61,373 nucleotides of DNA, from UHGV virus genome UHGV-1597594. One strand, given 5' to 3'. This document shows, in pieces, positions 3,145 through 61,373 of this stretch; position 1 is the first letter of the stretch, and each line of letters begins with the position of its first letter. The translations under genes and the position numbers were made by a program. This DNA comes from a virus. A model generated the notes under the pieces. That model was not told the DNA's origin and made no database searches. It worked only from the letters and a program-made list of their open reading frames with translations.

Positions 3145-4437
3145 CTACAACAATGACGGCACTCGTTGAGTTTCAAGTGGGTCACTGACATTGATGCCTG
3201 TGTATGCAACAAGTCGTTGTATTGGGCCAAGTACGAGTTTTTCGAACATGAGTCGTTTGTTCATTGGCGGCACATCTGGCATGTACTTCGGTGTCGGCAT
3301 TTCGCCTGGTGCAAAGCCAAATGCATCGCAATATTGACGAGAGCCAATTGGGATATTTGACAAATCTGACTTTGCTCTGTCAACAAAGTAGTAGAATACT
3401 CTACCGCCTTCAATCAATGGATATCGTGTTTCCAATCCATGAGCTTTTACAAGTGCATTATGGTATGCACAAGCCCTGTACTGAGGCAGTACACCTTTTG
3501 CTAACTGCCATTCACCGTCATAGCTTAGCACATAGTCATGATACTTGTTTGCATTGACATATGCGCAAAGTTTTTCCAAGTCTTGCTCAGCTTCAAAGCG
3601 TTTCCATAATTTCTGTATAAGCTTTGGATATGTCGCAGAAGTCAATTCGCCTCTGAACATTTTCTTAAATGCATAGTCAAGCATTTGTCTAACAAGCATT
3701 GATGAGCCTGTTTGAATAAGTTCGATGCCTTTGCCTTGAATGTGCTCAGTAGGGTCTTCGAATACTCGACCATCTACATATATTTGAGCCTTTAAGTACT
3801 TTTTCTTTTGGGCAAATAATGCAGTGTCAGAAATCGTTTCGAGGTCAAATAGCAAAATTGAATTGCCATGACGTTTTGCGAGGTATGCTGCATATGCCCC
3901 ATTGAATAATTCTTCCATACGATATTTGAATATCGCAAGAATCAAGTCATACCAATTTTTGCCTATGTAGCCAATTGATTTGACAGTTGGCTCAAAGTGA
4001 ATGTACAAAGAGTCTGTGTCAATATACAACACCTTGTCTTCATAGGGTTCGTGCTTTGGCGATACAGACAAATCAAAATTGTCCTTCAATTTGGGGTCAT
4101 TGCGCAGTTTTTCATGCAATTCATAATCACACCACCACTTGTTGTTAAGATAGTCATTTGCTACTCGTTCGCCAAAGTGAATGAAGTTACGCCCTTCAGC
4201 AGTAATTGATTCTGCAACTGCCATGTTAAAGAAGTGATAGAATCGATTACTTGTTGCACCATAGATTGAGTTTCGACAACATTTTGCTGAGACTTGCAGT
4301 CCTGCATGTTTTAGTGATTCTTGCATTGCAAAATCTCTCAATTCAAATAGACGTTCAGTAGACAACTGACTCAAATCACCAGTCAAATCTACCCCATCTA
4401 TTTCAATTTTTGACATATCTATCTGAGCTTCTGCCAT
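3145..4437 (-). CDS. family B DNA polymerase, C-terminal fragment (motifs B and C, KKKY motif)
   Basis: ATG at 4437. Translation contains KCCRNSIYG (motif B, KxxxNSxYG), YIDTDSLYI (motif C, YxDTDS) and QKKKYLK (KKRY-type motif). It lacks the exonuclease motifs and motif A, which are in CDS 7798-9303. Confidence 0.85.
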   Translation of the reverse strand: MAEAQIDMSKIEIDGVDLTGDLSQLSTERLFELRDFAMQESLKHAGLQVSAKCCRNSIYGATSNRFYHFFNMAVAESITAEGRNFIHFGERVANDYLNNKWWCDYELHEKLRNDPKLKDNFDLSVSPKHEPYEDKVLYIDTDSLYIHFEPTVKSIGYIGKNWYDLILAIFKYRMEELFNGAYAAYLAKRHGNSILLFDLETISDTALFAQKKKYLKAQIYVDGRVFEDPTEHIQGKGIELIQTGSSMLVRQMLDYAFKKMFRGELTSATYPKLIQKLWKRFEAEQDLEKLCAYVNANKYHDYVLSYDGEWQLAKGVLPQYRACAYHNALVKAHGLETRYPLIEGGRVFYYFVDRAKSDLSNIPIGSRQYCDAFGFAPGEMPTPKYMPDVPPMNKRLMFEKLVLGPIQRLVAYTGINVSDPLETQRVPSLL

Positions 4438-5645: not shown

Positions 5646-6473
5646 TTAGAATGGCAGTTCACCATCGTCACCTGCGGCGTCAAATTCAGCTGCAATGTCA
5701 TATACCAGCGTCATTGCGATTCGCAAATCACGCTTCTTAGACTTCAGGCGCATGATATCATGACCAGAATTGTTTGTGATGACTGAACATTCAAACTCTT
5801 CATTGCCATCAATAAATGACAGCATTGATTTGTGAATTGTGATTGGCGACAAATCAGATGGGTAATTTGCGTCAATCACATATTCAAAGTTGTTGTTCTT
5901 GGCAATTAGTCCTCGTTCAGTCGTGCGAATCTCAATGCCAGGCAGCTCCTTGTCACCAGTGTTCAATGAGCCATACGATGACATGATGCCAAAGTGATTT
6001 GACGTCAAATCGAGCTTTCTCAGATTTGTTGTGCTATCAAACAACATTGACATATCATTATCAGACAGCTCAAAGTAGCCAAGTGATGGCATTGAACAAA
6101 CCTGATTGATTTTGAGCTGATTGTTTGAGATTACAATGAGCTCTGCAATTGTATCTGTGCCAATTTGTTTAACATAGATTTCAATCATTGCAGATGAGCC
6201 AAATGCAGCAAGTACTCGATTGTTGAATTGCGTGCCATTGTAAATAAACGCCTTGACTGTGACATCTTTGAGTGTAGACTCATAATGTTCACAAATGTCA
6301 AGCACATTAAGTGTCTGCGACTTTACAAAGCTACTATTGCCAGCATCAGTTCTGATTCGCTGGTCATTGAGTGAAAAGCTAAGCTTGCCATCGCATTTTA
6401 ATGATGATGCAAACAATGCTCGCAGCATATCAATGTTTGCATTGCGTAACGTAATTTTGTTCAGATTTTCCAT
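5646..6473 (-). CDS. hypothetical protein with acidic C-terminal tip DDGELPF (possible SSB-like or SSB-tip mimic)
   Basis: 275-aa ORF ending ..AAEFDAAGDDGELPF; the tip resembles the conserved bacterial SSB C-terminal D-D-D-I-P-F tip. No OB-fold could be verified by eye. Confidence 0.55.
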   Translation of the reverse strand: MENLNKITLRNANIDMLRALFASSLKCDGKLSFSLNDQRIRTDAGNSSFVKSQTLNVLDICEHYESTLKDVTVKAFIYNGTQFNNRVLAAFGSSAMIEIYVKQIGTDTIAELIVISNNQLKINQVCSMPSLGYFELSDNDMSMLFDSTTNLRKLDLTSNHFGIMSSYGSLNTGDKELPGIEIRTTERGLIAKNNNFEYVIDANYPSDLSPITIHKSMLSFIDGNEEFECSVITNNSGHDIMRLKSKKRDLRIAMTLVYDIAAEFDAAGDDGELPF

Positions 6474-6541
6474 CTTGTATCTATGTTGTTGATTTTCAAT
6501 TTAATATATTGAACAACATTTGTTGACATTTTGCAACATTG

Positions 6542-6916
6542 TCATCGATTGTCGCCTGACCCATGCAATACACCTCGCAATTTTCGAGACTGCAGTTTCT
6601 GAATGTTAAGCTGACAAATGTCAGTTAAGCTGTAGCCCAAATCATGTGCAAGAGTTGCAGCATACCACATGACATCGCTGAGCTCTTTTGCGATTTCATT
6701 GCGAATGTCTTCATTATCAAAATCACCATTCTTGTCTCGAATGACTTTTTTGACTTTGTCTGCAACTTCGCCTGCTTCACCCATTAAGCCAAGTGTTGGA
6801 TAGATAATTGCAGCTGATTTAGGATATACTGCGCTATCAAGCGCAGCAGTCTGATATTCATCAATAGTTGAAATCTGTGTGTGGTCGATTACGCCATGTG
6901 CATCTCGTTTAAGCAT
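6542..6916 (-). CDS. mazG: MazG-like nucleoside triphosphate pyrophosphohydrolase
   Basis: ATG at 6916. 124 aa with LMGEAGEVADKVKK and ELSDVMWY, the two glutamate-rich helices typical of the all-alpha MazG/NTP-PPase family. Confidence 0.75.
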   Translation of the reverse strand: MLKRDAHGVIDHTQISTIDEYQTAALDSAVYPKSAAIIYPTLGLMGEAGEVADKVKKVIRDKNGDFDNEDIRNEIAKELSDVMWYAATLAHDLGYSLTDICQLNIQKLQSRKLRGVLHGSGDNR

Positions 6917-7797: not shown

Positions 7798-9303
7798 TTA
7801 CAATTTGATTGCGCCTCTACGAGCAAGCTCTTCTTCAATCAATCGAACATGATTGTTAGCATACCAAAATTGCAATTTTTTGTGATAATTGCGAACGTTG
7901 CCAAGCTGTTCTTGAGTTTCTTTATACATTGAAGGCTCTCTGTTGTCATACAGACAATTGTTGACTGACACAAAGTAATTTGGGTCTGCTTTGTAATGCT
8001 CGATTTCATCAGGATTTGTTAAACGTCTAATAAAGTTGTCTGGTGAAATATTCGCCGAGCGCATACTTGACGGATACAACGAGTTTGCATCAACACAGAC
8101 AACCATACGAGCCCAATGGTTAAATGGTTGCTTAACAAAGCCGCCCTCAAATGAATGTACAACGTTCTCCGGCCCACCTTGAGCACATACAACTTTACCG
8201 CCATATTTGTTGTACAAATATGTCATCATGACGCCCTCAGATTGCTTAACTGGTCCTTGACAGTGATTCATGTCAATATTTGTCATATTTGACAATGACA
8301 TCACATTTGATATCAAGTCAGTTTTTGCAGCAATCATCGCATTGACCATCGTATCGACAGCATTATATGCAATGAATGTGCATGGATGATACAAATACAG
8401 CTCTTTAAGTGTGCAATCATAGGGTAGCTTACCTACACCAAACATGCGATGTGCAATATAGTCAAGTCGCAATGACTCTTTTTGCCACACTGAATAGTCG
8501 TATGTGTCCATGAGCTGCATGTAGTCATCAATGTACTTGTGGTATGGCATACCATTGCCCCAGACAGTTCTGCCAACTGGAGATGCCAATGCCAAATCAA
8601 TATTGTGCATTGCGCATCGATTTTTGACATAGATGTTATCGAAGCCATTGATGTTCCAGCCTGTCAATGCAGGAATGTTTTTGAAGAGCTTAGTCACCCA
8701 AAAATGCAACAATTCATGCTCATTTGCATGTTGAAAGATTTTGACAGTTGGATGTTCTTTCAAATACGCAGCAAAGCAATGTTGACCCATGTACTCTTGA
8801 ATGATGCCATTGACAAACTCAAATGCATCATCCAATGTTGGGTTTTGTTTGCCGCAGCTTTTGCGCAAATCATCATCATTCAACAAGTCAACAGTAGTCT
8901 GAATGACACAATTGCATTGTTCATCGCATGTACTTATTGCGTTGATAGGCATTTCAGCTTTGTCAGGCTTTGGAAAGCCATTGCCAATTTCAGTCTCAAT
9001 ATCGTAAAAGTACAACTTTGGTCTACGATAAGCAAACAATTCAGCTTTGTCAGCTTCAGGCAATTCAAATAAGAATTGCAGCAAGTCAAATTGATTGAAT
9101 CGTTTTGCTGTGACTCGAGTCACTGGCAATTTACGCCAATCTTGAATATCTGCATATTGAGGCTCTACGTGGTCTGATATTTGCCATACTGGAAATTGAT
9201 AAGGCTGTTCACAGACTGGGTATGTTTTGATGTCAATGCCACCTTGCTCATTAACATATGAGACTTCAATGCCATGTGACAAATATGCTACGTCAACAAT
9301 CAT
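7798..9303 (-). CDS. family B DNA polymerase, N-terminal fragment (3'-5' exonuclease domain + polymerase motif A)
   Basis: ATG at 9303. FYDIETE (Exo I), WNINGFD (Exo II), YNAVDTM (Exo III), VCVDANSLYPSS (motif A, DxxSLYPS). The ORF ends about 95 aa after motif A, without motifs B or C. Confidence 0.85.
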   Translation of the reverse strand: MIVDVAYLSHGIEVSYVNEQGGIDIKTYPVCEQPYQFPVWQISDHVEPQYADIQDWRKLPVTRVTAKRFNQFDLLQFLFELPEADKAELFAYRRPKLYFYDIETEIGNGFPKPDKAEMPINAISTCDEQCNCVIQTTVDLLNDDDLRKSCGKQNPTLDDAFEFVNGIIQEYMGQHCFAAYLKEHPTVKIFQHANEHELLHFWVTKLFKNIPALTGWNINGFDNIYVKNRCAMHNIDLALASPVGRTVWGNGMPYHKYIDDYMQLMDTYDYSVWQKESLRLDYIAHRMFGVGKLPYDCTLKELYLYHPCTFIAYNAVDTMVNAMIAAKTDLISNVMSLSNMTNIDMNHCQGPVKQSEGVMMTYLYNKYGGKVVCAQGGPENVVHSFEGGFVKQPFNHWARMVVCVDANSLYPSSMRSANISPDNFIRRLTNPDEIEHYKADPNYFVSVNNCLYDNREPSMYKETQEQLGNVRNYHKKLQFWYANNHVRLIEEELARRGAIKL

Positions 9304-9320
9304 ATATCATTATCTTTTTT

Positions 9321-9731
9321 TTAGAATAGAGATATTGTACAACAATTTGATTCAGGTTGCCATTCTACAATATGCGCATCAAAGTGTTTATTAAGCCAAT
9401 GTGCAAGTATGTGTCTATGACAAAATGCAGATGGCCTGCACCAGCATAACAATACAATATCTCTTTCGCCAGCAAGAATCTTTATGCGATGCAACATCAA
9501 ACTTATCTGTGACAATGCAGCGTCAAGTTTTGCAGTGTATTGTTCTGCATATTGTGCATTATCAAGCAAGCCTACTTTATGCAAACGAACAAGTGACATG
9601 TAATCAGGCATGACGTCAATCCATATAAAATCTGCTACGAAACCCTTGGGTTTTGTTGCAGACACTTGAACAAGAAATGCATTGTCAGGCAACTGTCTGC
9701 ATGCATAATATGAAGTCAAGATTCTTGTCAT
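9321..9731 (-). CDS. hypothetical protein
   Basis: ATG at 9731; 136 aa. Its last codons (NCCTIS) overlap the promoter-like box for the polymerase gene. Confidence 0.5.
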   Translation of the reverse strand: MTRILTSYYACRQLPDNAFLVQVSATKPKGFVADFIWIDVMPDYMSLVRLHKVGLLDNAQYAEQYTAKLDAALSQISLMLHRIKILAGERDIVLLCWCRPSAFCHRHILAHWLNKHFDAHIVEWQPESNCCTISLF

Positions 9732-13691: not shown

Positions 13692-13728
13692 ACAAAAAAA
13701 GTCCGAGCAATGCTCGGACTTTTTTTGT
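13692..13728. terminator. bidirectional intrinsic terminator between convergent genes
   Basis: aaaaaaagtccgagcaatgctcggacttttttt: 9-bp perfect stem agtccgagc/gctcggact, 3-nt loop, A-run on one side and T-run on the other. Confidence 0.75.
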
Positions 13729-17134: not shown

Positions 17135-18028
17135 CTATGTCAATGCAATGAAGACGTCACCAGACTGTTCAGCTTCAAGCTCTTTTTCGACTTGTTGTTG
17201 CATTGTTTGACCTTTTGATGCAAGCCGGTCAAAGTTAATGCGAACATTGCCGGGCAACTTGAAGTCATATGTGCCAATGATATCTGCAAGCTCTTGCATG
17301 CATTGACCTGTGCAGTATCTCAAGAAACGTCTGTCTTCATACAATGATTGCAGCGGCACTCTTACCCAACACATCAACACCAAATCAGACCCTTCATTAT
17401 CACCAAGAACGTTCAGCTTATGACTAAATCTGTTGAAGTTATACGTGATTGTTCGTTGCAAAATGCTTTCATACGTGCCAATTTCATACATTGTCACCCA
17501 CAAGTCATCTGCAATTGATGCATTTTGAGAACCTGCAGGTCCAGCGTAGTTAAATGACACGCCATTCGCTTCACTATAAAAGTTAATTGAGTTGCTGAGC
17601 AGTCGTTCAAGATAAAAGTTTGCGCGCCGCATTGACAACTTATGTTGCGATTCAAGTAGTTGAACGTCTGATACAGCCCAAATTTGTGGCGGCAATTTGA
17701 CAATTTTGTTTGCGCCATCAGTCATGTCAATATTGCGAACAACAAACCAACGCTCTTCAAGAGCAGACTCAGAATGTTCAAAAAACCATTCTGCGCAAGT
17801 CTCAATGATTTGTGGCATACGAGTCTTCGGAATTGCAAATGGCAATGCGCAGCCTCGTGTGACTTCTTGTACAAGTCGCTCAATGAATCGCAAATCTACA
17901 CTGTAGTCATATCGAGAATTGATATTTTCGACTTCAGGCTTATTGCAATCATTTGTTGTTGCGCCTTCAACTTTCCAAGAAGTTGCGCCATCATTGAATT
18001 CTGCTTGTGGTTTGCGATTGACTTTCAT
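17135..18028 (-). CDS. hypothetical protein
   Basis: ATG at 18028; 297 aa; no motif. Confidence 0.6.
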   Translation of the reverse strand: MKVNRKPQAEFNDGATSWKVEGATTNDCNKPEVENINSRYDYSVDLRFIERLVQEVTRGCALPFAIPKTRMPQIIETCAEWFFEHSESALEERWFVVRNIDMTDGANKIVKLPPQIWAVSDVQLLESQHKLSMRRANFYLERLLSNSINFYSEANGVSFNYAGPAGSQNASIADDLWVTMYEIGTYESILQRTITYNFNRFSHKLNVLGDNEGSDLVLMCWVRVPLQSLYEDRRFLRYCTGQCMQELADIIGTYDFKLPGNVRINFDRLASKGQTMQQQVEKELEAEQSGDVFIALT

Positions 18029-18033
18029 AGAGT

Positions 18034-18513
18034 TTATCTTACAACAAGTTGAATGATCGGATTATTGTACACGTCCATTTTGAATAAGTCTTCGCCAGCT
18101 GTCATTAGCAATGCATCAAGAACCGCATTGCCAATGGGTGAATTCATAAACATTGACGTGCTATTAAGTGCCAATTCAGCCAAATACGTTGAAATGTCTA
18201 CATTGTCACCAGGTCGCATTTCCTGACGTATATAATAAGGATCGTTTGGATTATCCAAGTAATCATTCCAGCCAAAACCATCGGGCTGCTTAGTATAAGC
18301 AATATCAGTAAAACCAAGCTGTGCTCTATTATCATTGTCAAGTAACTTGTACCAAACTTGGCCATCAGCAGATACCATGTAGTTTGATGGCACAGTTAAG
18401 TTGTACTTTGATTTTGCTTGTGCAGCAGTTAATACGCCGCTTTCAAATGTGAAGCCAGCTGTTGCATGCATAGCATTTTGTGCTCTGTAATGTTCTTGAG
18501 TTACATGTGACAT
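18034..18513 (-). CDS. tail-fibre-like protein, paralog A (shared N-terminus MSxVTQ(E/D)HYRxQNA)
   Basis: ATG at 18513 gives MSHVTQEHYRAQNA..., matching the N-terminus of CDS 18582-19091; the C-terminal parts diverge. The tail-fibre role is inferred from the conserved-N/variable-C pattern and the neighbourhood. Confidence 0.6.
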   Translation of the reverse strand: MSHVTQEHYRAQNAMHATAGFTFESGVLTAAQAKSKYNLTVPSNYMVSADGQVWYKLLDNDNRAQLGFTDIAYTKQPDGFGWNDYLDNPNDPYYIRQEMRPGDNVDISTYLAELALNSTSMFMNSPIGNAVLDALLMTAGEDLFKMDVYNNPIIQLVVR

Positions 18514-18514
18514 A

Positions 18515-18570
18515 TATCTGAGTTTTTGAATGATTTGCAATAATTGACTTGCAAATCATTCAAAAACTCA
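18515..18570. promoter_or_regulatory. 56-bp perfect hairpin (24-bp arms, 8-nt loop) abutting the start codon of CDS 18034-18513
   Basis: tctgagtttttgaatgatttgcaa-taattgac-ttgcaaatcattcaaaaactcaga; the arms are exact reverse complements. Confidence 0.7.
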
Positions 18571-18581
18571 GATTTGCAAGC

Positions 18582-19091
18582 TTAATATGCGCATTGTATG
18601 CGATTAACTATTTCTGTATCGCCATCGCCAAAATACACATTGTGTTTAATGTTGTTTGTTATGTCTGTCAATACAGCTGTGCCATACCAGGTAATTTCTA
18701 CGTAGCGATTTAACGCTTCGTTAAGCAATGCATCGCTAAATTCCCAATTGTAAGCATTGCTAAATCTAAATGTGCAATCTTGAGAATAGCCTGGCACCAA
18801 TGTAATGGGCGCATTTGCAACGCATTTTAATGTGTTGCCTGCGGCAGATGTAAAAACAACTTCAAGTTGTACTTGAATGTTTTGCTTTGACTTATTTGTT
18901 AAACTTTGCACATCAATGTACAAAGATGATGCATTAACTGAAATGTTGTCATCAACTTTGTTATATGTGCAATTGCCAAAGTACATATCGCCATTTATCC
19001 AGCCTTCAGTCGTAATGGCATCTTCAGGCTTTATTACAGAACCCCCCCCCGCGTTTTGCGAACGATAGTGGTCTTGAGTTACACGTGACAT
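18582..19091 (-). CDS. tail-fibre-like protein, paralog B, with in-frame G9 tract near the N-terminus
   Basis: ATG at 19091 (MSRVTQDHYRSQNAGGGSV...); the GGG codons are a run of 9 G on the coding strand. Confidence 0.65.
   Translation of the reverse strand: MSRVTQDHYRSQNAGGGSVIKPEDAITTEGWINGDMYFGNCTYNKVDDNISVNASSLYIDVQSLTNKSKQNIQVQLEVVFTSAAGNTLKCVANAPITLVPGYSQDCTFRFSNAYNWEFSDALLNEALNRYVEITWYGTAVLTDITNNIKHNVYFGDGDTEIVNRIQCAY
19042..19050 (-). repeat. homopolymeric tract, C9 on plus strand = G9 on coding strand
   Basis: accccccccc at 19041-19050, inside codons 15-17 of CDS 18582-19091. Confidence 0.9.
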
Positions 19092-24481: not shown

Positions 24482-25747
24482 TTACCGATATTTGATGTGC
24501 CATGGCCGCATAAATACGCATACATTGATGTAGTTTGCATACACATATCGAAGCATTGCAACTGCATTGCTGACATCACTTACTGCAGCAGGCTCATAAT
24601 TTGCATGGCCGCCAATCTTAGCATTCAAAGCATCACGAGTAATTGGTGCAAGACTCCCATTTCTGAGTTCAGGCCATAACTGCGCTGCAAGTGATGCATT
24701 GTTTACAATGGCTTGCTTATGAAAGATTGCATTTTCTCGTGCGTTCTTTTTGCAATTTGACTGCCACATGCCATACACAAAGTATGGCTGATGCATAACC
24801 ACACAATTGCCTGACAGCTGCAAAATTGCATGCACAAAGTCAATTGCGGTGTCTGCGTCAAGACCCTTTGTTTTGCAATCATTGTAATCGATATTGTACA
24901 GCTTCAGCCACTCTGCATCGAACAACTCATATGGGTCATTGATGTAAATGTGCTTGAACCATAGCAATTCTGCATCAGAAGACATCACTGCAATATCTAC
25001 TTGTGCAATACGCTGCCAATCATTGTCAAATATGCTGCTTGGGATGTTGTCATGCTTTGCGCCACTGTAGCATGTCATTGCTGCTGTGCAATGCAACATT
25101 GGCCAAACTTGAAGCCGCTTGCAACATTCAGCAAATACATCTGCGCATGCATTGACATCAGCAAGAGCATCATGAGCGGATTCAAAGTCATGACCGAACA
25201 AACCTCGATAAGCATCGACAAGTCTTGCAGACCCATTGCTCAAATGCTTTGCAAAGCCTTTGTACAGAAACTTTGTGTCAATGACAGAGTATTGAGTCAT
25301 GAAGTTTGCAGTTTTGCAACGCTGACATTCATAATCGAGAATCGTCAAGTCATATGGTGCATTGTGTGCAATAAGATGCGTTACACCAAAACGTTCCAAG
25401 TCAAGTCTGAACTGGTCAAGCACTTTTTGCATAGGCTCTCCATGTTCATACAACTGCTCCATAGTATGGCCATGCACTGCAAGAGCTTCTGCTGGCATAT
25501 CATCAAAACTGTTGTTGAATCTGCCAAGCGGCATTACAAGCATATTGTTTCGATGCAGTTCTATAATGTTGCCCGCATAATCAAGTCTGAAGATTTTGTA
25601 TGCAAGCTGAACTACAAATGACATCTCTCGCAAATCAATGACATCTTGCTTATGATAGTAGTCAACTGCTAAGCCTGTCGATTCAACGTCTATACATGCG
25701 CATACCAGCTCTGTGATATGCTCTTTGCTTTTATTGATATGCTCCAT
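24482..25747 (-). CDS. DnaQ-like DEDDh 3'-5' exonuclease domain protein
   Basis: ATG at 25747. CACIDVESTGL (Exo I), HNAPYDLTILD (Exo II), SAHDALADV (Exo III, HxxxxD). Confidence 0.7.
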   Translation of the reverse strand: MEHINKSKEHITELVCACIDVESTGLAVDYYHKQDVIDLREMSFVVQLAYKIFRLDYAGNIIELHRNNMLVMPLGRFNNSFDDMPAEALAVHGHTMEQLYEHGEPMQKVLDQFRLDLERFGVTHLIAHNAPYDLTILDYECQRCKTANFMTQYSVIDTKFLYKGFAKHLSNGSARLVDAYRGLFGHDFESAHDALADVNACADVFAECCKRLQVWPMLHCTAAMTCYSGAKHDNIPSSIFDNDWQRIAQVDIAVMSSDAELLWFKHIYINDPYELFDAEWLKLYNIDYNDCKTKGLDADTAIDFVHAILQLSGNCVVMHQPYFVYGMWQSNCKKNARENAIFHKQAIVNNASLAAQLWPELRNGSLAPITRDALNAKIGGHANYEPAAVSDVSNAVAMLRYVYANYINVCVFMRPWHIKYR

Positions 25748-48226: not shown

Positions 48227-49221
48227 TGTTCAAGATGACATGCGCCATTTTGACAGTCAACATTGCTATCTGACATGCTTGCAAGATTTGCATTGCTGCC
48301 ACTACCAGCAGCTTTGCCAGCATTACCAGATGAACCGACAATGCTTATGAGTCTACTGTCAGACATTGCAGAGCCCGCATTAGCCGAACCTGATTTGCTT
48401 GGCAATGATATTCTGGCTTCATCATAGTTGCCACCAAAGGTGATGTTCAAGTCAAGTGTAGAATCATCACCATCAATATCAATGTTGTGCTCGTAGTCTG
48501 TGATGATGTCATCGCCAGCCCATATGTTATCACCAGAATTGATTGCAGGATATTGCAAGTGCAGTGTCAATGGAAGCTTGATGACTGCATCAATATCTTC
48601 TTTGCCATGCACAATTGCATGCTGAGCATCCATAGAAGACACATCGAATTCATATGATGCGCCATGCATAGTGCCTGCCCAGACAAAACCATACATATTC
48701 AACTGATACAGCTTGCTAAGCAAATACTCGTAAGTCTCAAGCGCAGTTAGCCAATCTGTTGAAAACACTTGAACATTGATTGCAAAATCTACTGGTATTC
48801 GTCTCATTGTGCTATACAATGCAACAGGCACGCTGTCAATTGTGGCAATCAAACGAATCTGCGTATCTTGCATGCCAAGTGCTTGCTTATTGATTCGAGG
48901 CGACTCTACTTCAACAACACATCGTGGCACAGTTTGAACAAAGTTCTTCGCGTCAACAAATGTATTTTCAAGTGAATTTGTTGGTGTATTGCCAACTGGA
49001 CTTGAGCCTTTGCCAACAAGTTCGCCCGACCAATATCGTTGGTCGCCAGTGCTCAGCATGTATGTCGGCATATTCAGACGAGCATACAAATCAGACAGCA
49101 GACCAATAAATGCATTACGAAAGAAGTGCTGAAATGTCACGTCTTTTGCATTGACTTGCTGTTTGATTGTAGCTTGAGCTGATTTCAGCTCAGCTGAGCC
49201 TCTGTTCAGTGAATCTTTCAT
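48223..49221 (-). CDS. hypothetical protein
   Basis: 332-aa ORF with a Gly/Ser/Ala-rich C-terminal region. Confidence 0.55.
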   Translation of the reverse strand: MKDSLNRGSAELKSAQATIKQQVNAKDVTFQHFFRNAFIGLLSDLYARLNMPTYMLSTGDQRYWSGELVGKGSSPVGNTPTNSLENTFVDAKNFVQTVPRCVVEVESPRINKQALGMQDTQIRLIATIDSVPVALYSTMRRIPVDFAINVQVFSTDWLTALETYEYLLSKLYQLNMYGFVWAGTMHGASYEFDVSSMDAQHAIVHGKEDIDAVIKLPLTLHLQYPAINSGDNIWAGDDIITDYEHNIDIDGDDSTLDLNITFGGNYDEARISLPSKSGSANAGSAMSDSRLISIVGSSGNAGKAAGSGSNANLASMSDSNVDCQNGACHLEH

Positions 49222-49652
49222 TGGTCAAGCATATCATTAGCAGCTTTTTGCTGCATAACGAGTTTTAGCAAAGCGTCATTGCCCTGTGATTCAAGCATGT
49301 CTTTAGCTATGATGAGCTTGTTTGTGTATGACAACTGGTCCCAACAAAGCTTTGTGTCAAGCTCATAATATGTGTTGATTGCATCAAACACATCAATAAG
49401 CTGCAAAGCACTTTTTGTTAACGCAGCGCATTTTGCGATGCACTCATTGTACTTTGTTGGCTCAATGAACTTGTATTTGCGAAGTCTTATTCTAATGTAC
49501 CTGTGATACGAAGACTTTTGCAAAAACTGTTCTATTGTAGATGTTGCTGATGCTACTACAGTGTCGTCATTGATTGAAAGCTTGTCGTATTTGATTTCAA
49601 ACCGCTCAAGTTCCATAGATAGCCATTCATTGTCAAATATCGACTTGCCCAT
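49218..49652 (-). CDS. hypothetical protein
   Basis: 144-aa ORF; no motif. Confidence 0.5.
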   Translation of the reverse strand: MGKSIFDNEWLSMELERFEIKYDKLSINDDTVVASATSTIEQFLQKSSYHRYIRIRLRKYKFIEPTKYNECIAKCAALTKSALQLIDVFDAINTYYELDTKLCWDQLSYTNKLIIAKDMLESQGNDALLKLVMQQKAANDMLDQ

Positions 49653-49676
49653 AGCATATGAACTGCTTGTAGTGTG

Positions 49677-49994
49677 TTATTGCATATTGTCGACAATCAG
49701 CTGTTCAAGTGCAATAGCTGACAATGCACCAGTAGCACGACCAACTTCAATGCAATCATGAAAGACAATTGTCGTTGGTACTGAACGAACATTATGAGTG
49801 CTATCAAGCTCATCGCACTCTTCAACATTCACTTCAGCAAATGTCACCTTGCCATTAAATTTCTTTTCAGTTGACTCGAAAATTGGCGCATAGCCTTGAC
49901 AAGGCACGCACCATGGCGCACTGAACTTCACTACAACGAGCGGATTGTTTGCAAGTGCTCGAGCCATTTCAGCTTTATGTTTGAGTTGCAACAT
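49677..49994 (-). CDS. trx: thioredoxin
   Basis: ATG at 49994. 105 aa with active-site WCVPC (canonical WCGPC) at the expected position. Confidence 0.75.
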   Translation of the reverse strand: MLQLKHKAEMARALANNPLVVVKFSAPWCVPCQGYAPIFESTEKKFNGKVTFAEVNVEECDELDSTHNVRSVPTTIVFHDCIEVGRATGALSAIALEQLIVDNMQ

Positions 49995-50036
49995 ATCTTT
50001 TTATGTTTGTTTGTTGACAATATATGTATATTTGCA

Positions 50037-50477
50037 TTACGCATCGTCTTCTACAGCAAGAACAGCTTCAAGCAATCTTGCGGTGTCTTTGCTGATGTTC
50101 TTGTCTTTGACGTTGGTGAGCTTTTTAAGGTCATACTGCATGATGCGCTCAAGCTTCTTTGCAGACTTGACTATGTCAGCATCTTTAGCACGCATTGCTT
50201 TTGCAATTTGTGCAGCAAAGATGCGCTTGTAGATATCAAGTTCTACGAAATCTACTGCTTTGATACCCTGTTCTTTGTACAGCTCAGTCAATGCTAAGCC
50301 AAACTGATTTGACGCTCTGTCAAAATCAACTTTTGTTGCAGGCTGTTGTGTTGCATTTGCTACAGCTTGAATTCGCTTTGTGACAAGCAAATAAGTGTCA
50401 AACACGCCTTTGAGGTCTTGCTGCTCAACTATAGGCTGCAGCATTGCTTTGATTTCAGTAGAAGTGTATGGTTGCAT
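50037..50477 (-). CDS. hypothetical protein
   Basis: 146-aa ORF; no motif. Confidence 0.5.
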   Translation of the reverse strand: MQPYTSTEIKAMLQPIVEQQDLKGVFDTYLLVTKRIQAVANATQQPATKVDFDRASNQFGLALTELYKEQGIKAVDFVELDIYKRIFAAQIAKAMRAKDADIVKSAKKLERIMQYDLKKLTNVKDKNISKDTARLLEAVLAVEDDA

Positions 50478-50529
50478 ATTGTTTTGTTATATGATTAATG
50501 TACTACGTAGCATCAACTTTTGCACAATG

Positions 50530-52125
50530 TCAAAGCTTGAATTTTTGCACATTTGTATCTACTGGCATCTTTTCAGCGTCATATATTCGTTTTCGAGCAG
50601 CAAAATGCTGCATGTCATAATTGCAGTAGCAGTAGCCTTTGCGAAGCTTGACAAGCATATCACTGTGAATTGTAAGCTTATGCGCAATATCAATAATGAT
50701 TGCTTTCTGCTTAAGTGGATGCTTACGCAACAGTCGCCCAATTGACTGCAATGTTACGTTGTCAGATTTGCCAATCATCAAGAATGCAGCGTAAAACCAA
50801 GCATGCACAGATACACCTGTAGACAAGGTGCCAGTAGTTGCAATCATGATGTGTCTGTCAGGCTCTGCTTCCATCATTGCTAGCATATCTTTGCGTTCAT
50901 GCAAGGGTACATCACCTCTAATGATGTGAACAACCTTGTCAACACCAGACTGCTGTATGAATGTTTGGCAAGCGTCATAGATGTTCTGCACATGGTCTCG
51001 TCGTTTGCAAAGCACAAGAGCATTTTTGTCAAGCGAACAAATGATTTTTGCAATGAGCTTGTTAGCATCGACGTAGTTCATGCAATGATGTTGTTCTGCT
51101 GGAAGCAGTCTTGCAGTGTTATCAAACACTTCAGGATGCTCTTCAAGATACTGCACAAATGGCGCATCATATTCTGCTGAATGCTCAATGACTACTCGTT
51201 TGATTTCAAAGTCAGACACGATGTTCTTTTCGAGTGCTTGAGCTACACCAAATGTACCCAATATTGGTCCAATGTATGATTCAATTGTCAAACGAGCTGC
51301 AGTATGCTCAAGTGGCAATGAACCAGATACGCCAAGACGATAATGTGCTTTTGTACAATGACTGAAGATTTCACGAATTGACGCTGCAGGCGCACCATGA
51401 GCTTCATCAGTTACAATGAAGTCGAACTGTTCGAAAAAGTCTGCTGGCATGTTGACAAGACTTTGATATGTGCCAACAACCATATCTGCATCTTGCATTT
51501 TGTATTCATTGCGAACACCTGAATGGATTTTGTAGAGTTTGTAATTCTTGTTTGCTAAATCTGACTCATTTTGTTGATAGCTGACAACAATATCGTCAAA
51601 CGCTTGTGACACGAGATGCACCGAGGGCACAATCATAAGTGTCTTGCCATTGATTCTCTTGCTGTCTTTTAAGAAGCGACTAATTACATAAACAAGAGCT
51701 GTTTTGCCATAAGAAGTCGCAAGGCGCAAACAACATTTCTTGAATTTGCAAGCAGTCAAAATAAACTTGAGCTGGTCGTCACGCATATCAAATGGCATAT
51801 CAAGGCATTCTGACCATTGCTCAAGCTCTTCAAGCGACACAATGCGATCAAAGTTGTCAATGAGGCCTTCAATCTTGACTTCGTATGGAATTGGCTTACG
51901 CAATTGCAAGTCCCAGATACGCTTCCATAAGCCAAATGGCAAATACACACCATTGAACACATAGCAAATTTGCCCATTCCAATCTGTTTTGCGCCCTTTG
52001 CGCTTATTGACTGCTGCTGCAACAAAGTTCGGTACTTCTGCAGTAGCTTCAGCGTATAATTGCTTGACTTCCAAATCATTTGCTTCGACAATTTGAAGCA
52101 AATCACCTATGACTTTGAGTCTCAT
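50530..52125 (-). CDS. superfamily-2 DEAH-box helicase
   Basis: Track start 52161 is TTG inside the terminator hairpin; the first ATG (MRLKVIGD) is at 52125. Walker A LATSYGKTA, DEAH box FIVTDEAHGAP, motif VI-like ATTGTLSTGVSV. Confidence 0.75.
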   Translation of the reverse strand: MRLKVIGDLLQIVEANDLEVKQLYAEATAEVPNFVAAAVNKRKGRKTDWNGQICYVFNGVYLPFGLWKRIWDLQLRKPIPYEVKIEGLIDNFDRIVSLEELEQWSECLDMPFDMRDDQLKFILTACKFKKCCLRLATSYGKTALVYVISRFLKDSKRINGKTLMIVPSVHLVSQAFDDIVVSYQQNESDLANKNYKLYKIHSGVRNEYKMQDADMVVGTYQSLVNMPADFFEQFDFIVTDEAHGAPAASIREIFSHCTKAHYRLGVSGSLPLEHTAARLTIESYIGPILGTFGVAQALEKNIVSDFEIKRVVIEHSAEYDAPFVQYLEEHPEVFDNTARLLPAEQHHCMNYVDANKLIAKIICSLDKNALVLCKRRDHVQNIYDACQTFIQQSGVDKVVHIIRGDVPLHERKDMLAMMEAEPDRHIMIATTGTLSTGVSVHAWFYAAFLMIGKSDNVTLQSIGRLLRKHPLKQKAIIIDIAHKLTIHSDMLVKLRKGYCYCNYDMQHFAARKRIYDAEKMPVDTNVQKFKL

Positions 52126-52142
52126 GACATGACTTGTTAAAT

Positions 52143-52181
52143 GAAAAAGAGGCTCAGACAAACAATGTCTGTCTGAGCCTC
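52143..52181 (-). terminator. intrinsic terminator downstream of CDS 52207-53337
   Basis: Perfect 12-bp stem gaggctcagaca/tgtctgagcctc with 9-nt loop; A-run 52143-52148 gives a T-run on the minus transcript. Confidence 0.65.
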
Positions 52182-52206
52182 GAGCATCTTTGATGTGCTT
52201 GTACTA

Positions 52207-53337
52207 CTACTTGAGCCCGTTGATGAATGCTTCAGTTTCAGCATCCATCGTTGCTGCTGCAGGTGCTGCTGCCGGAGCTGCTGCAGGTGCAGGCTCTGCT
52301 GCAGGCGCTGAAGCTGCTGCAAACGGGTCAATGGCTGTCTGAGCTGCTGGTGCAGTAGCAGGCGCAGCTGCCTGAGCTGTTGCAGGTGCAGGCTGAGTAG
52401 TCTGTGCCTGCTGAGCTGCTGACGGATTGATGACAATGTCAGGCCAGATATCCGACGCATCCTTGTAGTTAGCAAGGCGCATCTTAACCTGACGCTTAAT
52501 GTCATCAGAAGCTTCATGGTAACCCCACTCCTTTTCGACATTCGGGTACTCCTTGAGCATGTCGACAATCTGCTGCATGATTTGCTGCTTGTATGCAGGG
52601 TCAGTGTCATACTTCGCCTGATCAACAAGGGTGCCATCTGCAAGCAGCATCGACGATACGTTGGGCGAAATCGTCGAAGTCTCGTAGTCACGCATTTCAA
52701 CGCCATTGACGTCTTTCAGCGTAATCTTCAAGAGAATGTCGTGGCCCTTAACGGGATGGAACATGTCCATAGGCTGAGCGCCCATCTGGATGTCTTCGTC
52801 GGTTGGCTTCATTGCAGACATGCAACGCTTGTAGATGGCTGCAGGGAGTCGATATGGAAGTACTTTCCCAACGTTCTCAGTGTGCACTGAATCAGCTTTG
52901 ATTTGAACGAGGCAAGTGTACTGACTCTGCATACTGAACTCTCGCTTTGCAAGCGCTTCCTGCTGAGCATCCTTGGTATTGATGAGTTCCCAGTAGAATG
53001 CTGAAATGGGACACCATCCATAGGGTTTCATCAAATTTTCCGGATTTTCAGGATGCGGATTCGGTGAGCTCGGCGAATTGTAGCGGAAGCCCTGATTAGC
53101 GCCAGTCCCAAACCAGTAGTAACGGACGATTGAAATCGGCACCGCGGGGTCATTCAAGTTCGGCAGAATTCGAATGACTGCTCGATAGATTCGGTCCTTA
53201 CTTTCGGAAGGCTTAGGATTAAAAAACTCAGGTCCTGCAGAACGTTCCGGCTTAGCAAAGCTTGCTACATTGTCCGGCTGGACATCAAAGATTGACAGCG
53301 GCTGATTACCGGTCTGTCCATTTTCAATTTGTGACAT
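52207..53337 (-). CDS. hypothetical protein with Ala/Pro-rich low-complexity C-terminal region
   Basis: ATG at 53337. C-terminal ~70 aa are (A/P/T/Q)-rich (..PAPATAQAAAPATAPAAQ..APAAAPAAAPAAA..). Confidence 0.6.
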   Translation of the reverse strand: MSQIENGQTGNQPLSIFDVQPDNVASFAKPERSAGPEFFNPKPSESKDRIYRAVIRILPNLNDPAVPISIVRYYWFGTGANQGFRYNSPSSPNPHPENPENLMKPYGWCPISAFYWELINTKDAQQEALAKREFSMQSQYTCLVQIKADSVHTENVGKVLPYRLPAAIYKRCMSAMKPTDEDIQMGAQPMDMFHPVKGHDILLKITLKDVNGVEMRDYETSTISPNVSSMLLADGTLVDQAKYDTDPAYKQQIMQQIVDMLKEYPNVEKEWGYHEASDDIKRQVKMRLANYKDASDIWPDIVINPSAAQQAQTTQPAPATAQAAAPATAPAAQTAIDPFAAASAPAAEPAPAAAPAAAPAAATMDAETEAFINGLK

Positions 53338-53488
53338 CGCAATAAAATTTTAGAAAGTTTAACAAAAAGTTTGAAATGAACTCTTCAGAAAATCTTCAGA
53401 AGTTTATTTGTTATTTGTATATGTATTGTGCAACATGCATATTCATATTGTATATGAATATGATACAACATGCTAATATCATTTGCAC

Positions 53489-54610: not shown

Positions 54611-54629
54611 GCATATAAACTTACAACTG

Positions 54630-55385
54630 TCATTTCACTTCAGGTTTTGCTTGCTTGGCCAACTCAGCTTCGGCATTGAACTCTTTGCCCTCAGCTTTCA
54701 TTGTTTCAGCATAAGTCTTTTCGTCAGTGTAACGTTCTACGTCATTACCAAGCAGTTTTGCGACTTCGTCATCTGCTTCAAACAATGGCTGTGGATTGTC
54801 ATCATTATCATCTTTGAGTTGCTCAAATGCGCCGTTGTGTTTTTCTGCAATTTTGATAAGGTCTACGATTGAACGAGTTACGAGTTCACCATTGATGCCT
54901 GACTGCTGTTCAGATTGACCAGAGCCTTGTTGCAATTCTGCTTGAGTTGCTCGAACATTATTATTGAGTGACGCAACTATATTGGGAAGAGTTCGACAAT
55001 ACGCTATATATTGCTGAACCAACGACATTGCGTCATTCTGCAGTTTGATGAGAAATGCAAACTCACCCATGCCACCGCCTTGTGCATCAATGCGCTCGAA
55101 CACTGAATCAAGTGCATGCATTGCATAAAACACTTGTTTGCAAAGCAAATTGATGTTTGTCTTCTCCATCTCAATTGATGCATCGATAAATGGCGACTTA
55201 ACATCTGCTGCTATGCACAATTTGCGAACTTCATCAACGTATTTTGAACACTTGTCAAGTGTCTTGTCAAGTTTGCTTCGGTCAAACTGCTTGTAAACTT
55301 CTAACGCATCGCTTACTTCTGCAGCATCCAATATTGCATTTGCTGCAGCCAATTCTGATTCTCTGCTCATCTCAAAATGGTCCAA
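54630..55385 (-). CDS. hypothetical acidic protein
   Basis: 251-aa ORF; no motif. Confidence 0.55.
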   Translation of the reverse strand: MDHFEMSRESELAAANAILDAAEVSDALEVYKQFDRSKLDKTLDKCSKYVDEVRKLCIAADVKSPFIDASIEMEKTNINLLCKQVFYAMHALDSVFERIDAQGGGMGEFAFLIKLQNDAMSLVQQYIAYCRTLPNIVASLNNNVRATQAELQQGSGQSEQQSGINGELVTRSIVDLIKIAEKHNGAFEQLKDDNDDNPQPLFEADDEVAKLLGNDVERYTDEKTYAETMKAEGKEFNAEAELAKQAKPEVK

Positions 55386-55981: not shown

Positions 55982-55996
55982 ATCAGATAATGTATC

Positions 55997-56628: not shown

Positions 56629-56632
56629 ATTC

Positions 56633-56902: not shown

Positions 56903-56923
56903 TTTATGATATTGTTAAGATAT

Positions 56924-57513: not shown

Positions 57514-57514
57514 A

Positions 57515-59217: not shown

Positions 59218-59382
59218 TGTTGTAGAGATTTTTGTGTACTATATTGATATATGATAATTGTACTACAAAAATCACAAATTTGCACTGATTTGATATATAA
59301 TATGTCAATAAATTTCACATACAAAAGTCTTTTCGCTTATGAAAACTACTCAACTCTGGTTTGAACGCCAGCAGTCAATCGC

Positions 59383-59389
59383 GGGGGGG
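59383..59389 (+). repeat. G7 homopolymeric tract between an upstream ATG (59339) and the downstream ORF
   Basis: gcgggggggc at 59381-59390. Confidence 0.9.
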
Positions 59390-59463
59390 CTCTTCGTGAC
59401 ACTATTATTAGCGGTACTATCAACAAAGCAGATGGTTCACTACTTGAAGCTGCATATGCAACT

Positions 59464-60117
59464 ATGCAAGAAGTCGAATGCTATGATGCTGACACTGGTG
59501 AATTCTTAGCAGGCTCACCTATCACAGTGCAGCCAAATGGCATGCCAACATATAAGTTGACAATTCCTGCAAACAGGCTTGGTGCAGGTGCATTGTCAAT
59601 TTGTTCAGTGTATCTTGATAATGTCAGTGTAAATGACTGTCTACGTTATGGCACTGGCTCCACTTTATATTGCTATGCAGGTCAAGGTGAGACGCTTGAT
59701 AATGTCAATTTGACATGTGGTGATACACTTGCATGCTTACCCTGGATTCACGAAATTCATAGAGGCGATTCAGAGACAAATGAACAACGCATAGCAATTG
59801 TGCTTGATGGCATTGAACATTTTTGCACTGATGAAGACATTCAGCTACTTGCATCGACATTGTCACACCCATTAGAATCATTTGGAGATGACAAAGTGTT
59901 TGCAGGCAAGCCTACGTACTATGACAATTGCTTTGCTGAATGGCTAATGCTCAATGATTTTCAAGCAGGCAACATGGTCGATACGTCTGTCACTGACTGC
60001 ATTTTGCTTATTGCAAATGACCCAGTAGTTGGCAATGACATCTTGATTACTCTTGAGCACATCACATCAGCGTTCAACTTCAATATGTATGACATGACAA
60101 ACTGGAATATGCTGTAA
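59464..60117 (+). CDS. hypothetical protein; full-length form probably starts at ATG 59339 in the +1 frame across the G7 tract
   Basis: ORF-track ORF starts at an internal Met; reading from ATG 59339 with one extra G in the tract gives a stop-free, in-frame extension (MKTTQLWFERQQSIAGGALRDTIISGTINKADGSLLEAAYAT-MQEVE...). Confidence 0.6.
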   Translation: MQEVECYDADTGEFLAGSPITVQPNGMPTYKLTIPANRLGAGALSICSVYLDNVSVNDCLRYGTGSTLYCYAGQGETLDNVNLTCGDTLACLPWIHEIHRGDSETNEQRIAIVLDGIEHFCTDEDIQLLASTLSHPLESFGDDKVFAGKPTYYDNCFAEWLMLNDFQAGNMVDTSVTDCILLIANDPVVGNDILITLEHITSAFNFNMYDMTNWNML

Positions 60118-60130: not shown

Positions 60131-60166
60131 CACAAAAAGACTCAGCAATATTGCTGAGTCTTTTTG
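60131..60166. terminator. bidirectional intrinsic terminator
   Basis: aaaaagactcagcaatattgctgagtcttttt: 11-bp perfect stem, 2-nt loop, flanking A5 and T5. Confidence 0.75.
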
Positions 60167-60237
60167 TGTGCACTGTGACGCGCTTAATTGATACAGTCTA
60201 AGTGTAACATAGTCTGAAATGTTTACAAATTTACTTA

Positions 60238-60702
60238 TCAAATACCAATGTATATTGCGTATTCTGATGTTTTGATATCATCAGCGTCAAATTCAATTTC
60301 ACCATAGTTTTCATCACCTTGTGTTGCTATGATATGTGTAGCAAGCTTAACTTCATCATAGTACAAATCATAGAACACTTGCGTGCCTTTGTAAATTGTG
60401 ATAGCTGTGTTATTATCATACAACACTGGCGTCACTGTTTTAACAGGACCAACTTCTTGTGGCAAGGCCCTATCAAGAAATGTCAGTCTAATTGGTGTAG
60501 TGTACCGAGTATAAATATGCACGGTGAACTGCTTTAACAGCTTTCTTTGTTGGAGGGCTTGTTGTGCCCCCCCCCCAGTTACGAGGGATTTGCATATGAA
60601 TTGAGTTTTTGAAGTGAGTTGAGTTTTGATGCAAGATGCAAAACAACTAAGATGTTGTTTTGATATGTACATATGGGCAGTCAAAATATATAAAACAAAC
60701 AA
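60238..60702 (-). CDS. hypothetical protein with G10 tract near the 5' end; N-terminal boundary unreliable
   Basis: GGG codons (VTGGGAQQ) are the 10-nt homopolymer at 60567-60576; the 42 aa upstream look non-protein-like; an ATG (atgcaaatccctcgtaactgg) just upstream of the tract is out of frame by one. Confidence 0.4.
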   Translation of the reverse strand: MFVLYILTAHMYISKQHLSCFASCIKTQLTSKTQFICKSLVTGGGAQQALQQRKLLKQFTVHIYTRYTTPIRLTFLDRALPQEVGPVKTVTPVLYDNNTAITIYKGTQVFYDLYYDEVKLATHIIATQGDENYGEIEFDADDIKTSEYAIYIGI

Positions 60703-60760
60703 TTTAATAATTTGAAAAACTCATAAGCTTTATGACATTCAAATTGAACTGGGGGGGGGG
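60567..60760. repeat. 14-bp inverted repeat with homopolymers (C10-agtt ... aact-G10) flanking a ~170-bp AT-rich segment
   Basis: ccccccccccagtt at 60567-60580 and aactgggggggggg at 60747-60760 are exact reverse complements. Confidence 0.85.
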
Positions 60761-60869
60761 TCACATATCTGGCTCAATCTCTTGTTGTAACGTAGGTGAC
60801 ATTGCATTCGATGAAAAGTTTGCAGTGTTGCTTTCATGTCACATTGCATAACTTAAAACATCGAAACAT

Positions 60870-61277
60870 ATGGCAGTTCAAACACGTTCGGTACTCAAGA
60901 CATATTTTGAAACCGGAGATAAACCCACCTCAGCACAATTTGGCGACCTCATTGATAGTGCGTTGATGGCGAAAGCAACGCTTGAATCTGCGTCATTTAA
61001 TGCAGTCGCAAACACAGTGCATAATATAACGACATCGTCAGCAATAACATGCACATTGTCAAACTTAACATATGGCGAATCATGTGTTATTAATCGAGTA
61101 GGCAATGCGACAGTTTGCAATGCGACAACAACATTTGCATTCAATAATGGGCCATTGTACTATGCAGCGGGCTACTCAGATGTATCAGCAGATGCTACGG
61201 GTGCAATGTCATATGCAATTCTTATTGCAGGTAACACAACTCGTTGGGTGTTAATCAATCGCGCTTTCTACAAATAG
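60870..61277 (+). CDS. hypothetical protein (N-terminus MAVQTR shared with the next gene)
   Basis: ATG at 60870; 135 aa. Confidence 0.55.
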   Translation: MAVQTRSVLKTYFETGDKPTSAQFGDLIDSALMAKATLESASFNAVANTVHNITTSSAITCTLSNLTYGESCVINRVGNATVCNATTTFAFNNGPLYYAAGYSDVSADATGAMSYAILIAGNTTRWVLINRAFYK

Positions 61278-61354: not shown

Positions 61355-61373
61355 ATGGCTGTACAAACAAGAA
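61355..61373 (+). CDS. partial CDS, 5' end only; begins MAVQTR like CDS 60870-61277
   Basis: atggctgtacaaacaaga at 61355 encodes MAVQTR; truncated by the window end. Confidence 0.35.

Follow-up and report, generated by a model that had tools for sequence, protein, structure and literature searches.

A run of nine guanines close to the start of a gene for a protein of 169 amino acids (aa) in the virus genome UHGV-1597594 is probably one of several poly-G contingency loci that would be toggled by slipped-strand mispairing. We call the whole stretch analysed (61,373 nucleotides (nt), 40.2% GC) the window. Its tracts are labelled T1 to T4, tract T4 being distinct from phage T4, and L-numbers such as L003 or L010 denote related contigs from metagenome assemblies. 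The contigs compared came from ENA, JGI/IMG-VR and Logan assemblies, and the relatives of T1 in IMG/VR were reached via their proteins, the flanks being divergent. A tract is said to be ON when its length puts the module in the frame of the leader and OFF when this frame is broken.

In the proposed mechanism, the genes share a layout of a short conserved leader peptide, a G run and a variable C-terminal module. The run would gain or lose one base by slipped-strand mispairing during replication of the phage DNA, and the module would enter or leave the leader frame, giving a heritable and reversible flip between a full-length protein and a peptide of about 20-56 aa. By this scheme T1 would be ON in the window and T2 and T3 OFF by one base, and several independent loci would produce combinatorial virion variants. 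We infer that replication slippage is highly frequent and can be reversed within the population, and that the genes encode accessory proteins of the virion surface or of fibres, the mix of which alters host or surface recognition.

The T1 tract and the tract-less paralog

The T1 tract (19042..19050, minus strand) reads as C9 on the plus strand and as G9 in the sense of the gene, in frame and ON. The gene (18582..19091, minus strand) encodes a 169-aa product that begins MSRVTQDHYRSQNAGGGSVIK and consists of leader C (MSRVTQDHYRSQNA), three glycines and a variable C-terminal module. An earlier note on this DNA had located an in-frame G9 at 19042-19050 in this open reading frame (ORF), and the sequence agrees, residues 15-17 being Gly-Gly-Gly. 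The same note had written these codons as GGG-GGG-GGG, which is right for the three glycines and wrong for the literal codons: the run takes in the last base of codon 14 (GCG), the whole of codons 15 and 16 (GGG GGG) and the first two bases of codon 17 (GGT), that is, GC[G GGG GGG GG]T. Product lengths were obtained by in-silico translation of tract lengths from G5 to G13 at T1, T2 and T3. The T1 product measured 168-170 aa at G6, G9 and G12 and 17-23 aa at every other length tried, as anticipated by the claim that a one-base slip would truncate it.

The paralog of 159 aa (18034..18513, minus strand) lacks a tract; its leader C starts MSHVTQEHYRAQNA and its module is unrelated to that of T1. 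Both sequences start MSxVTQ(D/E)HYR(S/A)QNA, each from its own start codon, so that the pair with a common N-terminus, of which only 18582-19091 has the run, is as the earlier note described it. The paralog was found broken separately in four relatives, by a deletion of 14 base pairs (bp) in L003, by a change of ATG to ACG together with an A4 run lengthened to A5 in L004, by a stop at codon 7 in L008 and by a change of ATG to ATT in L024, and where the leader is broken the gene callers chose the Met right behind it (MHATAGF). Because different mutations disrupt its orthologues in four relatives, the paralog is dispensable. The idea that the two paralogs are alternative proteins failed: they are not mutually exclusive, because each possesses a start codon of its own and relatives carry independent disruptions of the tract-less one. 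The slippage ON/OFF switch that went with this idea is supported by the frame logic, by orthologous length variation between near-identical genomes and by purifying selection on OFF modules.

Excess of poly-G runs

The G/C runs of at least seven bases in the window are four: C9 at 19042-19050, G7 at 59383-59389, C10 at 60567-60576 and G10 at 60751-60760. Markov simulations of order 1 and order 3 gave an expectation of 0.0-0.08 runs of at least seven bases, against 4 observed, and of about 0 (at most 0.02) runs of at least nine, against 3 observed, in keeping with the earlier estimate that a run of nine identical bases should be rare at this composition. These runs had also been placed, all of them, in or beside genes with the MSxVTQ-type N-terminus, which is not the case, the other three carrying leaders A or B.

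Outside the four tracts, the longest G run of the window has 4 bases and the longest C run 5. The spectrum of G/C run lengths is bimodal, with a gap before 7-10, and that of A/T runs decays smoothly. GGG makes up 6% of the Gly codons in the window, GGG-GGG pairs are confined to the tracts, and Gly-Gly-Gly outside them is spelled GGC GGT GGC or GGC GGT GGA; the poly-G excess is a feature of the DNA rather than of the protein. Each of the four tracts of the window is a G run in the sense of its gene, 19-44 nt past an ATG, and the same orientation with a placement of 19-54 nt past an ATG held for every tract across about 170 kb of partly overlapping sequence (window and related contigs). The distant relative MA9V-1 had no G/C run longer than 5 within the corresponding 43 kb.

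The T2 to T4 cluster

The tracts follow three leader families, A (MKTTQLWFERQQSIAGG), B (MxxxxNWGG) and C (given above), and each codes for two or three glycines; the tract genes with leaders A and B neighbour the MAVQTR... genes. The T2 gene (59339..60117, plus strand, ATG at 59339) consists of leader A and a module. Its tract, read in the sequence as G7 (59383..59389, plus strand), is OFF with a product of 56 aa, and G8 is predicted to be ON with 259 aa, the leader being joined to the ORF 59464..60117. The T3 gene (60238..60595, minus strand, ATG at 60595) consists of leader B (MQIPRNWGG) and a module; its tract, read as G10 (60567..60576, minus strand), is OFF with 35 aa, and G9 is predicted to be ON with 118 aa. 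Tract T4, also read as G10 (60751..60760, plus strand), lies in a short ORF of 39 aa (60732..60851, plus strand, ATG at 60732) that starts MTFKLNWGGGHIS and has a B-like leader, MTFKLNWGGG. No length of tract T4 yields a long ORF, and this ORF ends 18 nt short of the gene at 60870.

Tract length variation among relatives

Comparison of the window (48738-59408) with contig k119_20060, from another sample, showed 10,671 nt that are identical save for T2, which is G7 in the former and G6 in the latter. T2 was G6 or G7 across six independent contigs, with G6 in the DNA of L013 and L014 and G7 in that of L005, L010 and L017. Gene calls of 217, 251 and 259 aa occur together in the protein cluster (90%) that holds the T2 module. 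The 217-aa calls begin at an internal ATG (59464 in the window) and those of 251 aa at a TTG ('MNASSQSRGALRD'), the latter with G6 in both contigs read (L013 and L014). The 259-aa protein P0024 ('MKTTQLWFERQQSIAGGALRDTII...') matches exactly the predicted T2 ON product, its G8 being deduced from the protein. For T3 the window has G10 and UViG_3300045988_152288 has G9 (ON, 118 aa), and T4 is G10 in the window and in L014 and G7 in L010, in the same reading frame.

T1 has at least eight alleles, which are confined to the tract, the flanks being conserved. Its orthologues carry G9, G6, G6TGG, GGTGGTGGGGCG, GGGAGGGGGGCG, G7CG and GTGGTG, and two other modules behind leader C carry G6 and G7. Protein P0027 (SQKRGGGS) would fit a G8 tract offset by an extra A five bases upstream, and P0028 (134 aa, internal-Met start, three contigs) would fit an OFF allele. 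A 62-aa chimeric query of the three leaders retrieved only two proteins, one of which, P0045, is an ON leader-A protein. A search of IMG/VR with a pattern of the exact T1 flanks gave no match, the flanks differing among relatives.

Selection on leaders and modules

The ratio of nonsynonymous to synonymous substitution rates (dN/dS) was 0.13-0.22 for the T2 module and 0.37 for that of T3; judged by these values, modules that the consensus shows as OFF are under purifying selection and are not pseudogenes. In the 75 nt that separate the T2 tract from the internal ATG (59464), five contigs differed by about 7 synonymous changes versus 1 nonsynonymous change in the ON frame. By inspection, paralogous leaders diverge mainly at synonymous codons, with CAC/CAT, TAT/TAC, CGT/AGA, AAC/AAT and GCG/GCT swaps in leader C and GAA/GAG, CGC/CGT and CAG/CAA swaps in leader A. 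On the pattern of these substitutions, the leader frame is translated and the leader-module fusion is the functional product.

The T1 module (18582-19037) had a dN/dS of 0.9-1.4 at an unusually low synonymous rate (dS) of 0.04-0.07, and the genes flanking T1 had a dN/dS of 0.02-0.13 at a dS of 0.1-0.3. The T1 ORF is open in dozens of cluster members. These values suggest diversifying or relaxed (intermittent) selection on the module, together with recent horizontal exchange of the cassette.

Several observations weigh against a slippage switch acting on surface proteins. The dN/dS of about 1 at T1 may stem from a relaxation of constraint and not from diversifying selection. Every one of the 12 leader-A tracts found in DNA is OFF, ON being represented only by the proteins P0024 and P0045; this skew exceeds that of a freely flipping switch, and expression could come from rare slippage products or from recoding. 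The T1 alleles, all recovered through protein searches, are all in frame, which is partly a bias of the search, and many T1 relatives have interrupted tracts, which are expected to be stable. Pfam and PHROGs gave no match for T1 and its paralog, for the modules of T2 and T3 or for another four cassette proteins. Finally, AlphaFold2 models reached a mean confidence (pLDDT) of 29.5 for T1 (8 sequences) and 46.4 for the T2 module (3 sequences), both too low to use.

Possible recoding at the tracts

Because OFF alleles predominate, the main rival to heritable slippage is recoding, by transcriptional slippage or ribosomal frameshifting, in which a small and constant share of full-length protein would still come from OFF genomes and the tract would set the dosage (a few copies per virion, for example) with no heritable switch. 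We consider this unlikely. It would account for the 12 leader-A tracts that are out of frame in front of modules nonetheless under purifying selection, and leader A at G7 is formally a G_GGG_GGG heptamer at which, by inspection, a -1 slip reaches the module frame. However, the module frame is reached from leader A' (at G7) only with G6 or G9 and in T3 (at G10) only with G9 or G12, which calls for a shift of +1 or -2 and not of -1; because the loci need opposite shifts, no single frameshift direction works. No stable structure was found downstream of the tracts (folding z = +0.23, +0.14, -0.75 and -1.2 versus shuffled sequences) and no Rfam family matched at the tracts, both of which speak against recoding, as does the existence of length variants in the DNA itself, true ON alleles included. 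Runs of 6-7 G are, moreover, short for slippage by RNA polymerase.

Identity of the tract proteins

T1 had been called tail-fibre-like, a label that is favoured by a weak similarity to tail repeats and by neck- and baseplate-like neighbours and disfavoured by the negative Pfam and PHROG results. In a HMMER scan of 1.84 billion representative proteins, the matches of T1 apart from close homologues were all giant repeat proteins. Among these, P0042 (1784 aa) carries the Pfam domain 'Phage tail repeat like', and its repeats of about 90 aa are weakly similar to T1 residues 48-132 (29% identity; YLDWTNTTNKPDPNIQVTL versus YIDVQSLTNKSKQNIQVQL); the other giant matches are DUF7507/DUF11 immunoglobulin-like (Ig-like) repeat proteins. 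A baseplate-like gene (PHROG 37871) stands on one side of T1; on the other, directly downstream of the paralog, is a gene similar to that of the phage T4 neck protein gp13 (17135..18028, minus strand; Pfam PF26809, PHROG head-tail adaptor Ad2). The T2 to T4 cluster adjoins proteins rich in BACON domains and Ig repeats and a weak gp14-like match. On these similarities and neighbours, the tract proteins are most likely accessory fibre or surface-decoration proteins.

A different role, compatible with slippage, is that the leader-tagged proteins are not fibres and are packaged in the virion and injected, as anti-defence effectors for example, the leader acting like the capsid-targeting sequence of phage T4 and phase variation hedging against defences that sense effectors. 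This role, which we rate as rather doubtful, would suit the many unrelated small modules behind a common N-terminal leader of 7-17 aa, the absence of matches to structural families among the modules and the dispensability and frequent loss of the genes. Leader A (MKTTQLWFE...) may resemble the T4 capsid-targeting sequence MKTYQEFIAE. Against an injected protein stand the likeness, though weak, of T1 to phage tail repeats and the structural surroundings of both clusters, with gp13-like neck and baseplate-like genes at T1 and a weak gp14-like match, BACON-domain proteins and MAVQTR structural-type genes at the other.

Exchange and possible inversion of cassettes

The leader-A repeat unit (59291..59408, plus strand) comprises about 48 nt of upstream sequence, the leader, the tract and 19 nt beyond; it is common to different modules, and inverted copies of it occur in relatives. 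Leader C stands in front of at least four modules (169, 159, 123 and 185 aa) that are unrelated to one another. T1 is absent from one relative, as would be expected from a deletion between two copies of the leader, and is replaced in another by two different cassettes. A module starting SKLVYLQL (154 of 156 aa identical) stands behind leader A' in two genomes (G7, OFF) and behind leader B in a third (G7, ON), and the breakpoint falls exactly at the tract.

In L010, inverted repeats of leader A of about 110 nt (97% complementary, arms at 6460-6570 and 9485-9593) flank a 2.9-kb multi-cassette segment. Two junctions were found, which correspond to the two orientations of the enclosed segment: '159 aa / leader A / T2 module' is that of L017 and the window, and L005, L013, L014 and L015 have 'BACON / leader A / T2 module'. 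In sample ERZ28658723, scaffold_281 carries the BACON junction and is 100% identical over 2,083 nt to the window, which has the '159 aa' junction and is itself matched by scaffold_133 of that sample. The segment flanked by leader A may be invertible, by programmed inversion or by occasional homologous recombination. The precomputed Pfam matches of the genes within about 10 kb of the cassette segment included no invertase or recombinase family. That the window is a chimeric join at 59291 was considered and rejected, the independent contig L017 having the same arrangement.

A two-tier generator of diversity is a tentative extension of slippage. In its first tier, slippage would toggle at least four to seven leader-tagged genes for accessory virion proteins independently, most of them OFF in the consensus yet kept by selection. 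In its second, the leader and tract would serve as a portable joint, a site of recombination and inversion at which modules are swapped between leaders and the multi-cassette segment is flipped. The tract would be both switch and joint, and the resulting combinatorial virion surfaces would possibly be matched to the phase-variable capsules of Bacteroidales.

The same exchanges would also be expected if the G run were a by-product, a Gly linker or a microhomology joint for recombination that is mutable without selected switching. The joining of one module to leaders A' and B with the break exactly at the tract, the deletion and replacement of cassettes between leader copies and the decayed tracts of some T1 relatives all favour it. 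We nevertheless find it improbable: a linker needs no GGG, a codon that the genome avoids (the 6% of Gly codons given above), uninterrupted long runs are retained in several independent leader families and lineages, MA9V-1 having none in its corresponding 43 kb, and OFF alleles persist with modules under purifying selection. An error of sequencing or assembly in the runs or their lengths deserves next to no credence, since, for all that homopolymers are error-prone and some contigs have low coverage (3.6 for L013), the same tracts recur at the same codon positions across studies and assemblers and with identical lengths in independent samples, and poly-G artefacts come at read ends and not within conserved ORF starts.

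Comparison with known systems

Poly-G tracts give ON/OFF subpopulations in the Campylobacter Fletchervirus phages, according to an article that refers to Sorensen et al. 2021 (Cell Rep 35:109214) for this (PMC10877375). The loci of the window are like these in that phage-borne poly-G tracts lie inside ORFs and changes of length shift the frame. They differ in that the lineage has relatives infecting Bacteroidota and a GC content of 40%, and in that the tract stands 19-54 nt past the ATG behind conserved leaders, with swappable modules and most loci OFF in the consensus. The 2021 work reportedly dealt with several in-ORF poly-G tracts that shift the frame and proposed bet-hedging in host recognition. 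The GC content of Fletchervirus is about 26%. By tblastn, neither T1 nor the ON product of T2 matched any of 50,697 phage records, and hence no Fletchervirus homology was found.

Contingency loci made of simple sequence repeats, with reversible frameshifts by polymerase slippage and bet-hedging, have been described in phages T2 and T4 and in other coliphages, and the survey by Gomez, Barrick and Waters found repeats of at least 6 bases to be under-represented in tail-fibre and other infection genes (10.1101/2025.10.21.683753). Compared with the coliphage loci, those of the window are a few G7-G10 runs in a genome otherwise avoiding G/C runs, and they are concentrated in leader-tagged accessory genes. 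As in the surface genes of Campylobacter, Neisseria and Haemophilus, there is a 5' homopolymer, a frameshift between ON and OFF, a number of independent loci with combinatorial phenotypes and interrupted tracts that correspond to locked alleles; unlike the bacterial loci, the carrier is viral, has its own family-B-type polymerase genes, and the phenotype would show in virions. The constant N-terminus with alternative C-terminal modules, the inverted repeats and the finding of both orientations recall the Mu G and P1 C segments and the shufflons. Mu G and P1 C differ in that Pfam found no invertase in the flanking 10 kb or so of the cassettes, and in that the repeats here are coding leaders, with a leader at both ends.

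The system would work as the known phage systems do, without homology to them, and departs from them in its lineage, in the fixed position of the tract behind leaders and in the swapping of modules at the leader or tract; it departs as well in a mostly OFF consensus with purifying selection and in the link to a cassette segment flanked by inverted repeats. Gut Bacteroidales evade phages by phase-varying their capsules and surface proteins, and the known counter-strategies of phages are diversity-generating retroelements and inversions. In the searchable literature, experimental evidence for poly-G contingency loci of phages comes from Campylobacter phages, and for gut phages a Nature paper of 2025 mentions such tracts as no more than a possibility.

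If the switching is true, bet-hedging by slippage would reach a large, uncultured lineage of gut phages, and the order of leader, poly-G and module would be a searchable signature of accessory host-interaction genes that lack homology. Consensus assemblies would then routinely mis-annotate such genes with truncated ORFs and wrong starts, as in the T2 calls of 217, 251 and 259 aa, and the phage would offer a natural system of several genes that are mostly OFF yet under purifying selection.

Intergenic elements and further genes near the tracts

The stop of T1 and the start of the paralog are separated by a hairpin with a perfect 23-bp stem (18518..18571, minus strand), the 3' arm of which holds TTCAAAAACTCA. 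This sequence was found upstream of several cassette genes and lies 6-9 nt before the ATGs of T3 (60609) and T4 (60716). The shorter AAAACTC was rejected as a general upstream motif (14 found versus about 12 expected), and only the longer TTCAAAAACTCA recurs before cassettes. Scans for sigma-70 promoters and for terminators stayed at the shuffled expectation; the promoters of the host are probably of other types. Between the convergent T2 and T3 genes, a self-inverted BLAST match and the sequence revealed a palindromic hairpin (60131..60168, no strand assigned), which is likely a bidirectional terminator.

The divergent T3/T4 intergenic region contains a 34-nt tandem repeat, TTTTGATGCAAGATGCAAAACAACTAAGATGTTG (about 60618-60665 in the window, 11160-11282 in L014). 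It is present in 3.6 copies in UViG_3300045988_152288 and in about one in the window, and is therefore a second length-variable element between poly-G genes. The same UViG (L011) has at 202-1203 a lipoprotein-like gene of 333 aa (MIKKMICIAVCAWMCASCEKNDGGGFDEP...) with YGNGKFV-type repeats and a G8 right after the lipobox cysteine, a fourth context of a 5' poly-G tract in the phage species.

The 135-aa gene that follows T4 (60870..61277, plus strand) starts MAVQTRSVLKTYFETGDKPTSAQFGDLIDS, and another of the same kind starts at 61356. Residues 1-31 of the protein at 60870 match the N-termini of a protein of the crAss-like phage cr127_1 and of a 'structural protein' of a Flavobacterium phage. Small genes with this N-terminus and no tract form an array (60870-61277 and 61356 to the end in the window, 10486-10944 in L005), which looks like a further family with a conserved leader and variable modules. 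Directly upstream of the leader-A cassette, L005 (2676-8347) and L010 (686-6358) encode consecutive proteins of 1442, 199 and 204 aa, all starting MAKP(T/A/I)W...SP.SG.GN...HTGR, a BACON-type N-terminus, the largest having many Ig-like repeats. These three are likely virion-surface binders of glycans.

The phage and its relatives

Megablast of 12 kb around T1 gave no nucleotide match in 50,697 phage records. The 1113-aa protein beside the T1 locus had 23-31% identity to proteins of the Chryseobacterium phages MA9V-1 and MA9V-2, the Sphingomonas phage PAU, the Tenacibaculum phages PTm1, PTm5 and pT24 and the Prevotella Lak phages. Close contigs, near-identical or at 94-97%, were scaffold_133 of ERZ28658723, k119_20060 of ERZ27260843 (181 kb), several Logan contigs and, in IMG/VR, UViG_3300045988_149023 (175.6 kb) and UViG_3300045988_152288 (174.6 kb). 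Judged by these matches, the phage is about 175-180 kb in size and distantly related to jumbo phages of Bacteroidota. A human-gut origin is suggested by the sample names, the BACON-domain genes and the match to a crAss-like phage of human faeces.

The window codes for a split family-B-type DNA polymerase, helicases and an SbcC-like gene. The similarity to DNA polymerase lies in ORFs 3145-4437 and 7798-9303 (PHROG 1918/262 and 2062/262), about 3.4 kb apart with ORFs between them, and a gene resembling an exonuclease subunit stands separately at 24482-25747. Just downstream of the 1113-aa gene, A7 and T7 runs surround GTCCGAGCAATGCTCGGAC at 13694-13726, forming a hairpin that looks like a bidirectional terminator.

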